From a virus (taxonomy: Duplodnaviria > Heunggongvirae > Uroviricota > Caudoviricetes), in IMG/VR virus record IMGVR_UViG_2879770953_000004: a stretch of 38,987 nucleotides of DNA; one strand, written 5' to 3'. This document shows, piece by piece, positions 1 through 14,275 of this stretch. Below the pieces are notes generated by a model, which searched no databases, was not told the origin of the DNA, and was given only the letters and a program-made list of their open reading frames with translations. Each line of letters begins with the position of its first letter. Position 1 is the stretch's first letter. The position numbers and the translations under genes were made by a program.

Positions 1-834
1 ATGAGTGATGGGTGGTTAGATTCTACTATGCAAGCAATAAACGATAGGATTAAAAGCCCATTATGGGGATATATCATTCTTGCATGGGTATGGTTCAACT
101 GGCCTAACTTAGCAATGCTCTTTATGAGTGATGCGCCTGTTAAGTTTCGAATAGATTATATACTATCTCAGGAATATTTTTACGCTCATTATCTGCTTGC
201 TCCTGTCTTTTTTGGAGGTGTGCTAGCTGTTATTACTCCTTATGCTCAATGGTTACTTTCTCTTGCTCAAAAATGGGCTACAGATAAACACAATGAAAAT
301 GTTTATCTTACAAAGGAAAAAGAATACTTGGATTCAATCAGGTTAACGGGGTTAAAGGTTCGGGCTGCCAGAGAAGAAGAGAAAGAAAATGCTAAAATTG
401 ATGCTGATATTAAAGCGGAAGTAGAGCGTGGTAAGCGTGAAGAGCTGGTCACAGAAGAGCTACAGACAGAGAAGAAACTGATTCAGAAAGAAATTAATAA
501 TTTAAAGCAGTTAGTATCTAAAGAAAAACAAACCATTGAAAATATCGAGATAGAAAAAGAGAGACTACAGGATTTGATTGTTGCCTCACTTGAGGTAATG
601 GATGATTTCTTTAAAGTTGATAATAGCCGTTCATTACAGCAATTGAAGAGTAGGGTAGAAGAACTTTTAACAGTTTCTGATATTGAAGCTTCTACCATAC
701 GTAACGCGCTACGACAAAAGAAAGAGCTAACTTCATCACAGACAATGAAAATGTTCGATATGGTAGAGGCTAAAATTAAAAAGGAAAAAGAAAAAGGTAA
801 TGATATAGAGTCGGATGAATTAATTAACCAATAA
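1..834 (+). CDS. Hypothetical membrane-anchored coiled-coil protein; may extend upstream of the window
   Basis: 277-aa ORF starting at base 1. The N-terminal third has hydrophobic helices (LWGYIILAWVWFNWPNLAMLF, LLAPVFFGGVLAVITPYAQWLL). The rest is K/E-rich heptad-like sequence. Confidence 0.5.
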   Translation: MSDGWLDSTMQAINDRIKSPLWGYIILAWVWFNWPNLAMLFMSDAPVKFRIDYILSQEYFYAHYLLAPVFFGGVLAVITPYAQWLLSLAQKWATDKHNENVYLTKEKEYLDSIRLTGLKVRAAREEEKENAKIDADIKAEVERGKREELVTEELQTEKKLIQKEINNLKQLVSKEKQTIENIEIEKERLQDLIVASLEVMDDFFKVDNSRSLQQLKSRVEELLTVSDIEASTIRNALRQKKELTSSQTMKMFDMVEAKIKKEKEKGNDIESDELINQ

Positions 835-2656
835 TGCTATGCCTGTAAATAACAGGACATAAACAGGTTAGTACCTATGCAATTTAACGGTATTTTTCCA
901 AGTATCTATGCAATCCTACACAGATTCTATACAGTATCGACATAGCCCCTTTTTATCATAACTTATTGAAATGTATAGAGAATCTGTAAATCCTCTTTTC
1001 AGGGTAAACTATATCGTGTTAGTCGTCCCTCTCCAGACACTACATATAGTGCTATATACAGGGCTATATAACGGTGTCTATGCAGTTGGTCACTATCAAT
1101 ATTCCCTCAAAGTGACTATCAACCTACTTAATAGTTACCTACGTGAAAGTTATGAAGTGATGGTTATAGTTCCTTCGTATCTCCTCTTAAAAAATCACTT
1201 AGAGACATCTTAATCTCTATACAGAATCTACGTAGGTGCTTATTAGTGCGCAAAACAGCTATTATGTTAAAAACATACTGTATACATATCAGTACTGATT
1301 TATAAGGGTTTTGTGTATTGGCTGATAAGAGGCTATACAGCACCTTGAGAGCATGTCTTATAAGTCATTGACACATAAGGTCACAGAAGTTTGTAGCTGT
1401 TACAGAGAAAACTGGATAGGACTTCACAGAACTACAAAATGTTACAGCTATTGATAGGTTAAATCTTCTTGATAGATGCTTTGAAGTGTGATGAAGGTTT
1501 CTTGAGGTGGGGCTAAACAGATATCATGAAGAAAGTCAATAGTTGGTTATAGATATTTTAACTGCTTTTGCAAAGGGAGTGCTATATCGTGAATCTGGGG
1601 TACTTAACAGCCATCAATTGAGTGTAGATATTTTTGAAGATTATCGGTGAAGGGGAATGTAGAGGGGTTACTACGATATTTATAAAAATTTTCAGACTCT
1701 GAAAAGTTACTGTACAGATTTTATACAAACAAAAAAGGACTCCGGTGAAGGAGCCCTCATCAGGTAGATTTTTAATGTGGCTACTACCATCCACCCATAC
1801 CGCACCAAACCTTACCCCACCGAACCGCACCCTACACGACCTTACCTCACCGGACACTGCCATAGAGAGTGTGCTTGGTTGCTTTGGAAGTAAACCTAGT
1901 ACAGTAAGCCATTATACATATCTAGATAGTAACGTCAAGAAACTTTTAACAGGAGGGGTTCCTATGGTCACATATTCCCTCTCTTCCCACTAAGTAAGCC
2001 TTAGCAGCACCTAAGCAACAATTGACTAACAGATTCGGTAGAGTCTATCTCATAGGTCAACTTCATAAACTCAGAGTTAAGTTACCTTGAAAGATTCTAC
2101 CAAGAACTACACAGGTGTTATTTAGTCTAACTGTGAAGGGATATTTAACGGGAGAAGAGATACGATATAACCCGAAGGGAGAGTATCATCTTAACAATTA
2201 TCTTAAGAATAAAAACTGAAAAACTCTTAACAGATAACTACCTAGAAAGAAGGGAACGATAAGACCAGAGGTAGTGACCTGTTAAACAGGCTGTTTCGAA
2301 GTCTCTTAAGAGTCTGTTAAGTAAGGTCATGTGAACAATCTTACCATTTTGTCAATGCCTTTGTCTTTGACCTAAATCAATAAAATGTATCGTTTGATAT
2401 GGTTTTAAGCAAAATAGCTAAAAAATCTTTTTAGAGGGGCGCTTCGCTTGTGTCACCAATATTATTCTTCCCTGTCTAAGGGGGAGGTTACAGAGGTCTT
2501 TCAAACCTCAATAGGCAAACCGAGGAACACGAAGGACGAGGGAAGAAAATCTATTGTGATTACCTTGAACAACGCCTGTAAAGACTGTCAAGAAGGTTGG
2601 TTAAGAATGGCTCTCCCTTTCTGGGGTTATCGCCTTGTATCTTAGTGATGAAGTGG

Positions 2657-3496
2657 TCAACAAAAACTGGCCACCGAGTTAGAGTTTTTCCAGTATCGAT
2701 TTTCCGATTCGTTTGGGGGTAACCCACCGTTATATTCGTGCGGTCTTAATGCGCTGTAATATCCAACGATATAGTCCGTTATGGCGTGAGCTGCCTCGCT
2801 GAAGCTTACGTAACCCACCACCGGCATCCATTCGTTCTTCAGACTCCTGAAGAAGCGTTCCATTGGGCTGTTATCCCAGCAGTTTCCGCGCCGGCTCATA
2901 CTCTGTCTGATCTGGTATCGCCACAATAACTGCCGGAACTGCCTGCTCGTATAATGACTGCCCTGATCGCTGTGGAACATCACCCCGCCGGGCTTACCAC
3001 GGGTTTCCCATGCCATTTCCAGCGCTTTCATGGTGAGCCTGCTGTCCGGCGAGAACGACATGGCCCAGCCCACTGGTTTTCTTGCGAACAGGTCGAGAAC
3101 AACGGCGAGGTACGCCCAGCGCTTACCCGTCCAGATATAGGTCACATCACCGCACCACACCTGATTTGGCTCGGTCACGGCGAACTGCCTTTCAAGGTAG
3201 TTAGGGATAGCAACATGTTCATGACCACCACGTTTATACCGGTGAGTCGGCTGCTGACAGCTGACCAGCCCCAGCTCTTTCATGAGCCTGCCAGCAAGCC
3301 AGCGTCCCATCTGGTAGCCTCTCCGGGTTGCCATTGTGGCGATGCTTCTTGCTCCGGCCGAACCGTGGCTGATGCCATGTAGCTCAAGTACCTGACTGCG
3401 TAATACAGCCCGTCTGCCGTCTGGTTTTTCAGGACGGTTTTTCCAGTATCTGTAGCTGCTGCGATGAACCCCGAACACATGGCAGAGTGTGACCAC
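2657..3496 (-). CDS. IS911 OrfB frame (made as an OrfAB fusion by -1 frameshifting)
   Basis: The ORF has a DDE integrase core ([10 protein letters not shown]... [10 protein letters not shown]... [11 protein letters not shown]). It is in the -1 frame relative to OrfA. Confidence 0.9.
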
Positions 3497-3522
3497 AGGA
3501 TAATGCGCTCTGAGTTTCCCGA

Positions 3523-3825
3523 TTATCGAGAACTGTTCAGGGAGTCTGACATCAAGAGCGCGGTAGCCTTTTTTAATATTTCATTCTCCATTTCAATGCG
3601 TTGTAGCTTTTTCCTGAGCTCACGGATTTCAATTTGTTCCGGGGTAATGGGGGAGGCTTTTGGTGTTTTGCCCTGACGCTCATCACGCAGTTGTTTGACC
3701 CATCTTGTCATTGTGGAAAGGCCAACATCCATAGCTTTGGCGGCATCTGCCACCGTGTATTTCTGGTCAACAACCAGTTGAGCGGATTCGCGTTTAAACT
3801 CTGCGCTAAAATTTCTTTTTTTCAT
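3523..3825 (-). CDS. IS911 OrfA
   Basis: [49 protein letters not shown]... (100 aa). HTH plus leucine zipper typical of IS3-family OrfA. Confidence 0.9.
3568..3574 (-). promoter_or_regulatory. IS911 programmed -1 frameshift heptamer A AAA AAG
   Basis: The minus strand reads AAAAAAG inside ...ILKKATALL... at the OrfA/OrfB overlap. Confidence 0.8.
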
Positions 3826-12958: not shown

Positions 12959-13049
12959 CTGTTCTCCAATGACTAGTCTAAAAACTAGTATTAAGACTAT
13001 CACTTAAATAAGTGATACTGGTTGTCTGGAGATTCAGGGGGCCAGTCTA

Positions 13050-13054
13050 TTGAC
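13050..13054. repeat. IS2 target-site duplication TTGAC (right)
   Basis: Identical pentamer at 11714-11718. Confidence 0.9.
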
Positions 13055-13852
13055 CAAATGAACCCGCTTTATATTGGTTAAGCGTCTGGTGACCTTCATC
13101 ATTAAGAGTCCTGACAATCTCCCAGATAGACTTACCCTCTAACCGTAGCTGAAAGCACCTCTTCACAGTCTCCACTTTCTCAGGGATTACAGAGAAGCTT
13201 TTACGGTCATCATTAAGCTTAAGCCATGCAGGACAACGTTTAGAAATCTTGATACCTTCAGAGATGAGTTCTTTTTTACGGTTCCATGCAGCTTGTATAC
13301 GCTCAGACTTCCTCAAACTCTCCTCATGCGACCGCTGCATTATCAGAATGCTTTTAATCAGAGCTAACGGGTCTTTAAGAGATTCTCGTGTGTAATGTTC
13401 ACCATCGGACAAGGTGACCACATCTACACCAGAGCGAAGAATGTTTCTGAGTAGCTCACTTGCTTGGTCTACATCTTGACGTGACAGACGGTCAAGAGAT
13501 TCTATCAAGAGCGTATCACCAGCTTTAACAAGCCCTTTCTCGATAGCGGTTAAAAAGTCACCTAAGCCACCTTTCAAGTGCTTACCAGTGAACCCACTCA
13601 CCCCCAAATCACGGAAGGATAAATCTTGGTCAAGGTAGTACTCAGGATGAGCCTTAAGCCAGTCATTAACCATCTTAGACTGTCTGCGTAGTGAGTCGCC
13701 TTTGGCTTGTCGCTCAGAACTGAATCTGATGTAGCTGATTACACGTTTCATTCTTTACCACCATAAAAACTAATAGCAGTTGGGCTTGTTATGAGGATGC
13801 TTCATCCGAATCATCTACCAACCCCTAGATTGTATCGCTTTAGGTGGTGTAT

Positions 13853-14275
13853 TTAAACGTGTCTGATGAAAATCACCCGATTAACGCCGCGCTGATGTAA
13901 ACCGCGATTAAGCGTTTGTTCCTCTTCCCCTTTGGCGAAAAACTGTGGATGGCGGACTTCCACACCATAATTAAATTCGCCAGGGAGAGAATCGAGAAAA
14001 TGCCAAAGCGCAGGCAGCTCCCGTGGGCCGAATGTGGCAGGCAGTTGCAGCCAGTATTGCCCAATGCGCGGAGCCAACGGTGACATGCGGGTCAAAAATT
14101 CAGTCACTAAATCATCGCAATGTCGTAATGCTGCCTGATGCGAAATGGTCGCCGGAAACTTAAAACAGAAGCGGAAGTCATCTGTGGTCTGTTCACGCCA
14201 GCGCAGGACAACCTCGGGTTTCGGCAGGGCGTAAAGCGTGGTGTTGCCCTCCACGCAGTTAACATGACGGGTATT
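13853..14275 (-). pseudogene. yecE: Internal fragment of yecE (DUF72 family), truncated at both ends by mobile-element junctions
   Basis: Translation ...NCVEGNTTLYALPKPEVVLRWREQTTDDFRFCFKFPATISHQAALRHCDDL...LHQRGVNRVI matches the middle of E. coli YecE as remembered. Similarity is lost after RGVNRVI (~13870) and upstream of ..RH.NCVEG (~14275). Confidence 0.6.

Follow-up and report, generated by a model that had tools for sequence, protein, structure and literature searches.

The yecE island and its excision

We analysed a stretch of 38,987 nucleotides (IMG/VR record IMGVR_UViG_2879770953_000004), referred to here as the window; all coordinates are window positions. Positions 1-13868 form an AT-rich island whose right edge is an attachment site (attR) inside the host gene yecE, and which we on balance take to represent a new family of satellite-like parasites of virulent myophages of the Felix O1 type (Felixounavirus/Ounavirinae). 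The GC content was 0.34-0.44 across positions 1-11500 outside two GC-rich insertions, and 0.47-0.60 in the remainder of the window. Without its insertion sequences (IS), the element has a GC content of 39.2%, against 51.5% in the host flanks, and the coordinates of the AT-rich block in a preliminary description of this DNA proved accurate. All long open reading frames (ORFs) lie on the plus strand except a convergent recombinase gene, again as first described. The features that define the boundaries and the mobility of the island are listed below.

2649-3898, minus strand: IS3-family insertion sequence of 1250 bp, a secondary insertion with two transposase ORFs, presumably IS911-like; missing from relatives, the flanks abutting with a 3-bp overlap in one of them (L008)
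10892-13751 (10892-11718 and 13050-13751), minus strand: large serine recombinase gene, its halves 92% and 96% identical to the intact 507-aa protein of strain JEB8
11719-13049, minus strand: IS2 of 1331 bp, a GC-rich segment with IS2 transposase ORFs that is missing from JEB8, the flanks overlapping by 5 bp; the name IS2 comes from an annotated relative
13829-13875, no strand: attR, with the right end of the element at 13868 and the core AAAATCA common to attB in yecE
13869-14274, minus strand: 5' part of yecE (host; Pfam DUF72), 97.8% identical to positions 341-746 of the K-12 yecE reverse complement

IS-free relatives were located by megablast against complete E. coli genomes, and these copies measure 11.6-11.9 kb between the two yecE halves. 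In JEB8 (L001), the element splits yecE; yecN, cmoA, and cmoB directly adjoin this locus on one side, with yecD and aspS at the opposite side. The first element gene opens with its start codon at window position 1, 93 bp inside the left end, while the right junction was placed at 13868/13869 by comparison with the intact K-12 yecE. The IS-free relatives and the other junction, for which the preliminary description had suggested a search, were found in JEB8, JML285 (L005), and Ec-U11 (L006); the intact K-12 yecE served for attB, which shares the core AAAATCA with attL and attR.

The reported lack of head, lysis, and replication genes was confirmed: Pfam, PHROG, and PADLOC scans detected no capsid, portal, terminase, lysis, replication, or conjugation domain in any ORF. 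The suggestion that the missing modules might lie left of the window does not hold. Only about 93 bp of the element lie there in the IS-free relatives, followed by yecE/yecN, so that no head or lysis module is hidden leftward, and the ORFs do not all belong to a known phage family. The block is an IS-damaged copy of a complete mobile island, not a broken prophage.

The large serine recombinase was correctly recognised from the first. Its intact JEB8 orthologue contains Resolvase (PF00239), Recombinase (PF07508), and Zn_ribbon_recom (PF13408) domains, and the YIRFSSERQ motif was found in the window protein. The gene starts at 13751, 117 bp from the yecE junction (estimated earlier at about 120 bp). 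Because IS2 splits this gene, the window copy is immobile.

We wrote the expected attP from attR and attL of two relatives and scanned it against sequence collections. The arms of this reconstructed site form an imperfect dyad, GGTGTATTTA(A/G)AC ... GTCTAAATACACC. The exact predicted attP had one match in a metagenome collection, in an 11,473-bp contig (ERZ1090866 NODE-760; L023) with a GC content of 39.5% and no yecE sequence. This contig is a circular permutation of an element, in which the right end is joined to the left end. It runs through p92-like, p107-like, p234-like, and p70 genes (described below), the tape measure, the tube initiator, and a recombinase (91.5% identical) to attP, followed by the left-end non-coding blocks, a cargo of Dam and a small resolvase, and four 22-23-bp iterons. 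This arrangement shows that, in nature, the element ends are joined at the predicted core, in a circle or concatemer, and that the element excises. The evidence for a large serine recombinase system comprises the domain set (in the intact orthologue, the window gene being disrupted by IS2), the att core, and the attP junction. IMG/VR loci carrying the recombinase were considered as packaging evidence and rejected, as these are proviral predictions from isolate genomes.

Tail genes and non-coding blocks shared with Felixounavirus

Two adjacent tail genes and several parts of a long non-coding region connect the element with Felixounavirus phages. They are as follows.

835-4490, no strand: conserved non-coding region, about 2.4-2.5 kb without the IS, with no ORF kept across relatives
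875-1340, plus strand: iteron-like array of six same-strand copies of CTAT(A/G)CA(A/G)
1537-1731, plus strand: homology block covering the right end of the direct terminal repeat (DTR) of Felixounavirus and about 130 bp beyond it
1725-1938, minus strand: putative small RNA of about 180 nt, with the promoter TTGACG-16-TATAAT (1938->1911) and a terminator (1758->1735)
2244-2285, plus strand: DTR-interior block, 89% identical over 44 nt to AYO145A 15538-15580; also in JEB8, JML285, and Ec-U11
7864-9930, plus strand: tape measure protein (TMP; 688 aa; Pfam TMP_3, 1.7e-20), homologue of the Felixounavirus TMP
10104-10877, plus strand: tail tube initiator (257 aa; Pfam Dit_like, 1.2e-17), homologue of the gene directly after the Felixounavirus TMP gene

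The layout in which a tape measure gene is followed by a single 257-aa gene and then by the integrase is as originally described, and the 257-aa protein is the tube initiator. The assignment of a tape measure also stands; its TP901 or siphophage type does not, as the closest relatives are the TMPs of Felixounavirus myophages. In a tblastn comparison with 50,697 phage records, these TMPs showed 29-30% identity to the element TMP over its full length (30% for AYO145A), and the 257-aa protein shared 65-73% identity with the gene adjoining the TMP gene in Felixounavirus. The best matches in the Protein Data Bank (PDB) were 9ndy_F for the TMP (Bas63 gp017; E = 1.4e-75) and 9ndy_A, the "Tube initiator protein (gp018)", for the 257-aa protein (E = 4.6e-106). 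In the TMP, the first 46 residues (about 78% identical), a central domain, and the C-terminal end (...SSxYPEE) are kept relative to the phage, while the remainder has diverged; between elements, its identity ranges from 43 to 97%. In the Bas63 virion, a hexamer of the tube initiator adapts the threefold hub to the sixfold tube, and the last 25 residues of the TMP contact the spike and the hub (PMC12609058).

In Ec-U11 (L006 11861-12404), the tube-initiator gene shows 90.6% identity to AYO145A over its first 544 nt, compared with about 70% in other elements, which indicates recent recombination between element and phage. The GC contents of the element (39.2%) and the phage (39.0%) are also nearly equal. 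The shared coding sequence is confined to these two genes: no other Felixounavirus gene or pseudogene was detected in five elements, where tblastn of 452 AYO145A ORFs found just the TMP and the tube initiator, and a profile search of seven element protein families against all AYO145A ORFs gave nothing below E = 0.07. The TMP and the tube initiator are the only element proteins with phage homologues.

A motif, ACGTA-NNN-CACGCTTAA, preceded by AAAAAT(A/T)AGA, was observed at 7826-7848 and 10062-10084, about 20 nt upstream of the TMP and tube-initiator starts. It is kept in relatives, and its pre-TMP copy derives from the 3' end of a phage chaperone gene. The sequence ACGTANNNCACGCTTAA, upstream of both genes, was considered as a shared phage late promoter and was rejected because it is absent from the phage.

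These comparisons bear on the possibility, raised in the preliminary description, that the block is a decayed siphophage of low-GC origin. Survival of the tail genes and integrase from such a siphophage, or from a temperate relative of Felix O1, would account for the phage-like GC content, the two tail genes, and the integrase, and the window copy does carry two IS insertions. However, many lineages hold the same content of about 12 kb, complete and with a conserved layout, between intact att sites. Purifying selection acts on all ORFs, and neither pseudogene traces nor other remnants of further phage genes were found. Left of the window, as described above, the element ends within about 93 bp at yecE/yecN. 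Moreover, excision is precise, and the tail genes are of the myophage kind, their relatives being strictly virulent Felixounavirus myophages of 85-90 kb. We regard decay as very improbable and close to refuted.

The non-coding region is 88.5% identical to that of JML285, a value above those of several coding genes, and RefSeq annotates no gene in the corresponding regions of JEB8, JML285, and Ec-U11 except a homing endonuclease. It is likely to be a cis-acting control, replication, and packaging region. The iteron-like array, also present in JEB8 and Ec-U11, holds within its 466 bp six of the nine matches to the repeat in the window. Together with the iterons of the excised contig, these repeats look like origin or operator arrays.

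The two DTR-like blocks match a 1.5-kb non-coding region of the phages that contains the direct terminal repeat. We placed the DTR by the annotation of UAB_69 and by the many phage records that start at the equivalent of AYO145A 15278; a terminal repeat of 581 bp has been reported for a related phage (PMC8303462). An alignment of the 1537-1731 block from two phages and five elements contained 76 invariant columns.

The putative small RNA lies at the edge of this block. Its promoter is the best sigma-70 match in positions 1-11000, and an intrinsic terminator follows about 180 nt on, on the same strand. The predicted transcript contains about 12-13 pentamer units, mostly GGUNN, within 1782-1861, plus a hairpin. 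Among the sequences compared, GGTNN tracts were confined to three elements and to four places in the phage, these four all on the transcribed strand. Phage records matching the repeat part numbered 111, every one of Felixounavirus type. The module was present in 75 of 5426 E. coli genomes. Rfam contains no family for this module or for the phage GGTNN tracts; Rfam scans gave only sub-threshold microRNA, snoRNA, and lncRNA noise, and no tRNA was found in 1-14500 or in the phage repeat region. In JEB8 (L001 19766-20290) and Ec-U11 (L006 2333-2857), the exact position of the small RNA is occupied by an AP2-HNH homing endonuclease gene, which suggests homing into phage-like sequence.

On the phage side, four GGTNN tracts were observed at 58.9-60.5 kb of AYO145A on the minus strand (L004 315-541; L002 33903-34099), each with 10-15 pentamers and a hairpin behind it. 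One pair occupies the leader that runs from a promoter to gp088, and the other pair comes after gp089; the adjacent genes gp088-gp090 had no Pfam match. These tracts resemble sites at which a ring-shaped protein could bind RNA, as in TRAP-like attenuation, or sequences that form two-layer G-quadruplexes.

Core genes, relatives, and neighbouring DNA

The remaining features of the element are the cargo, core, and accessory genes and a predicted promoter.

1-834, plus strand: left-end cargo p277 (277 aa), hydrophobic in segments near the N terminus and then forming a long coiled coil; no Pfam or PADLOC match, and only PHROGs of unknown function
4410-4438, plus strand: predicted sigma-70-type promoter of the left operon, TTGACA-17-TAGTAT with TG (a consensus match only), with two TGTTACG repeats upstream
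4491-5042, plus strand: p183, a helical core protein and marker of the family; in all relatives with 58-66% identity, a narrow family
5044-5322, plus strand: p92, core, kept in relatives; its sole match, DndE, is sub-threshold (E 0.08)
5322-5537, plus strand: p71, an accessory small ORF found only in the window, JEB8, and Ec-U11
5534-5821, plus strand: HNH_3 endonuclease (95 aa; Pfam HNH_3, 1.8e-8), accessory and homing-endonuclease-like; absent from L005 and L008
5973-6296, plus strand: p107, core, in all relatives with 71-88% identity; no family match
6769-7473, plus strand: p234, core, an all-helical coiled coil with 25-97% identity between elements
7497-7709, plus strand: p70, core, followed by a terminator-like hairpin at 7736-7767

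The common gene order is a variable left gene, about 2.5 kb without genes, p183, p92, (p71 and HNH), p107, a gap, p234, p70, the tape measure, the tube initiator, and the recombinase. The left-end slot of relatives holds a different gene (a 306-aa ORF, Dam, or an FRG-domain protein) or none. The HNH-like ORF noted earlier was confirmed by its Pfam match. By contrast with this ORF and the tail genes, p183, p92, p71, p107, p234, p70, and p277 received no family, defence-model, or fold assignment from Pfam, PHROGs, PADLOC, or structure searches. The AlphaFold model of p183 (pLDDT 78) had no fold match in the PDB, and neither had p92, which is possibly a ribbon-helix-helix regulator. The p234 model shows two helices of about 55 residues each at a pLDDT of only 58; a role as a capsid-size scaffold would be speculation. 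Just upstream of p234, within the 473-bp gap after p107, we observed a 28-nt inverted repeat (6648-6737; 86% complementary, 34-nt spacer) that could be an operator or attenuator.

The segment from p234 to the tube initiator (6769-10877) had full or partial matches in 471 of the 5426 complete E. coli genomes (about 9%); in 62 of these, 80% or more of its length was covered. The matches are all chromosomal, with 60-99% nucleotide identity, and no complete E. coli genome has the exact arrangement of the window. The gene order was identical in every relative inspected (JEB8, JML285, Ec-U11, Citrobacter sp., a partial copy in E. albertii, a Logan contig, and an NCBI draft genome). The layout is kept in at least three genera, and the family is spread over Escherichia, Shigella, and Citrobacter. 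A protein of Shigella flexneri is 100% identical to the p183 of the window; given this identity and the lack of the window arrangement in complete E. coli genomes, the window probably comes from S. flexneri. Every ORF had a ratio of non-synonymous to synonymous substitution rates (dN/dS) of 0.04-0.59, and all ORFs are under purifying selection.

The recombinase differs in some copies. It is just 34% identical in the Citrobacter copy, and in a draft genome (L024; GCA_017782005.1, DADTYS010000144.1) an element with the usual gene order carries another serine recombinase, of 547 aa, and lies beside wrbA/yccJ/agp instead of in yecE; this suggests that the recombinase was swapped and that a second attachment site exists. 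Contigs of 11.5 kb with p183 turned out to be ordinary contig breaks; one of them led to the wrbA-adjacent site.

In a scan of 1.8 billion representative proteins, relatives of p183 fell into few clusters. A remote homologue (27% identity, 274 aa) is encoded in an 11.5-kb yecE island of a genome with 57% GC (L020/L021 8100-19900), together with Dam, a small resolvase, a 541-aa serine recombinase, and a 745-aa TMP_3 protein; this island has no tube initiator. The closest phage relatives of its TMP are Pectobacterium phages of the Ounavirinae type (36%).

To the right of the island, the yecE piece at 13869-14274 is cut a second time, at its own 5' end, by a neighbouring lambdoid prophage. This second mobile element in yecE, a remnant at 14438-35300, is inserted about 73 nt from the yecE start and carries an Arm-type tyrosine integrase (14438-15583, minus strand), an IS600-type IS (about 15700-16900), and tail genes (tube, tape measure, gpJ, and fibre) at about 20300-35300. 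The two yecE elements stand in tandem in several E. coli strains. Beyond the remnant, 35391-38987 is AT-rich (GC 0.38-0.44 at 36000-37500), with a 583-aa ORF (35391-37142, minus strand) and an apparent further IS2 at the right edge of the window, whose ORFs (37759-38664 and 38622-38987) equal in length those of the IS2 at 11719-13049.

With a lambdoid prophage adjoining the island in yecE, its tail genes might serve a resident prophage or tailocin, or might have been co-opted for an unrelated host function. Most relatives, however, have no neighbouring prophage, and the tail genes match Felixounavirus rather than lambdoid parts, as do the phage-derived non-coding blocks. We therefore consider such a role improbable.

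Interpretation and comparison with known systems

The synteny of the TMP and tube-initiator genes, the DTR-like blocks, the GGTNN module, the equal GC content, and the recent exchange all point to Felixounavirus. The element has defined boundaries and carries no genes for an autonomous virion or lytic cycle, which is the general description of a satellite. On these grounds we favour the reading introduced at the outset, that of a new family of satellite-like parasites of Felix O1-type virulent myophages. The preliminary description had offered a helper-dependent element with its own tape measure as one of two options; this option fits, is strengthened by the phage-derived cis elements and the excised attP, and is still something that we infer. 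In the searchable literature, neither a serine-recombinase element in yecE nor a satellite of Felixounavirus proved to have been described.

Placement of the island in yecE by the large serine recombinase is documented by the att sites and the excised attP form. Infection by a Felix O1-type phage would then lead to excision and copying of the island. As no recognisable replication protein is encoded, copying probably proceeds through phage functions acting on the long non-coding region. The phage terminase might cut and package the island DNA through its mimics of the DTR end, as their homology suggests. The island TMP and tube initiator, which are clear homologues of the phage proteins, would form the core for the tail tube and replace their counterparts in otherwise phage-made tails, with both proteins keeping phage-like ends for contact with the hub, spike, and tube. 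Core substitution, the cargo gene, and, in some copies, the small RNA mimicking the GGUNN repeats could together lower the phage yield and shield the host population.

A more detailed proposal can be put forward tentatively. It envisages a widespread, undescribed, PLE-analogous satellite family in enterobacteria that has no capsid or replication genes and instead mimics the DTR packaging signals, replaces the inner tail core, and in some lineages produces a decoy small RNA copying the GGUNN leader of the phage, this leader itself being an unrecognised regulatory system that binds a ring-type protein.

Several observations weigh against the satellite reading. Induction by a phage, replication, packaging, and transfer of the element are steps that we infer from sequence. 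The element core (3909-7860) had no match among the 50,697 phage genome records, and the attP pattern had none among IMG/VR viral contigs; spontaneous excision or a tandem copy might account for the single attP contig. At 44-200 nt and 69-89% identity, the DTR-like blocks are short; they do not follow the phage order and may be regulatory rather than packaging sites. A candidate for the left boundary of the DTR, a 14-mer shared with the window (GTTACGTAAATGCT; E 0.058), was not significant and, being absent from other elements as well, was rejected. The small-RNA module occurs in only about one-sixth of elements. Finally, because six core or accessory proteins received no functional assignment, candidates for a capsid-size factor, a repressor, a replication initiator, or an excision factor cannot be named.

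These points leave room for a mobile defence island that is not packaged and spreads otherwise. The diverged TMP and tube initiator would then act as dominant-negative tail poisons of Felix O1-type phages, and the small RNA and cargo would add interference. Both proteins keep their phage-contacting ends, while the remaining TMP is just 30% identical to that of the phage, and the divergence between elements (43-97% for the TMP, 25-97% for p234) resembles that of an arms race. Interference with tail assembly is also established, for Tai (PMC11364771) and for Tab, which targets the TMP (PMC10884400), and the failure to find the element core in phage genomes or attP in IMG/VR viral contigs would be expected. 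Such an island, however, leaves unexplained the DTR-end homologues that are kept in all elements, and it offers no transfer route for 12 kb without conjugation genes, although the family has spread over Escherichia, Shigella, and Citrobacter with swapped recombinases. PADLOC (2023) gave no match to a defence system: apart from a homing-endonuclease model, its matches were sub-threshold noise. Its library is not known to include Tai or Tab. Interference and a satellite life are, moreover, compatible, as PLE and P4 do both. We consider an island of this kind rather unlikely and retain the satellite as the favoured reading.

To our knowledge, the Vibrio PLE/ICP1 system is the only case in which a satellite of a strictly virulent phage has been worked out in detail, and we know of no characterised satellite that replaces the tape measure and the tube initiator. 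If the satellite reading is correct, the element would provide a second such system, in E. coli, Shigella, and Citrobacter, and one that is immediately tractable: about 9% of complete E. coli genomes contain a relative, and the partners are the laboratory and biocontrol phages Felix O1 and Bas63 (BASEL; virion structure solved). It would then bear on the failure of Felix O1-type therapeutic and biocontrol phages on some strains, on the packaging of a 12-kb element by a terminal-repeat phage of 87 kb, and on the reason for a satellite to substitute its own tape measure and tube initiator. From the GGUNN-repeat RNA module that island and phage share, Felixounavirus genomes also seem to hold a regulatory element that is so far unstudied.

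P4, of 11.6 kb, resembles the element in size, in its dependence on a myophage for the virion (conditional here), in the likely reuse of helper packaging signals, and in a variable slot for cargo or defence genes. It differs in having a tyrosine integrase, a primase-helicase, Sid/Psu/Delta, and temperate P2-like helpers; no such domains were found in the element. Similarly, the tyrosine integrase, AlpA/Stl-type regulator, Pri-Rep, terS, and capsid module of PICI and cfPICI were not detected in the element by Pfam or PHROGs.

Barth et al. (2023) predicted bioinformatically a group of E. coli satellites that carry a tape measure and a baseplate component and lack most tail genes. Their genes include those for a major capsid protein, a decoration protein, and RepA_N initiators; most have a tyrosine integrase and sit at tRNA genes, with a serine-recombinase subset at lysR. 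Shared with the present element are the bioinformatic basis of the prediction, the occurrence in E. coli and relatives, a TMP with a baseplate-type gene, and a serine recombinase (in a subset there). Our element, in contrast, lacks the capsid, decoration, and RepA_N genes, resides in yecE, and matches Felixounavirus, a different phage group. Tai and Tab share with it the attack on tail assembly (for Tab, the tape measure) and the location on mobile elements, including satellites (PMC11364771, PMC10884400). By their descriptions, they are small dedicated inhibitors, whereas the candidate interfering proteins of the element correspond over their full length to the phage TMP and tube initiator.

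The comparison with PLE was made by description. As to the PLE genes TcaP, CapR, NixI, LidI, and Gpi, none was named in the Pfam and PHROG results. PLE are larger, at about 18 kb against about 12 kb, and we know of none that carries a tape measure and tube initiator, as the element does. The element further differs in its Enterobacteriaceae host and in being known from its DNA alone, and no RepA_N or other recognisable replication gene was found among its ORFs by Pfam, although iteron-like repeats are present. The two have in common a small island with a large serine recombinase, a virulent myophage as partner (apparent here), a long non-coding region, homing-endonuclease-type genes, variant families of an arms-race-like kind, and the lack of capsid, terminase, and lysis genes. 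Although it lacks the RepA_N gene by which PLE are defined, the element would, by analogy, work most like a PLE.

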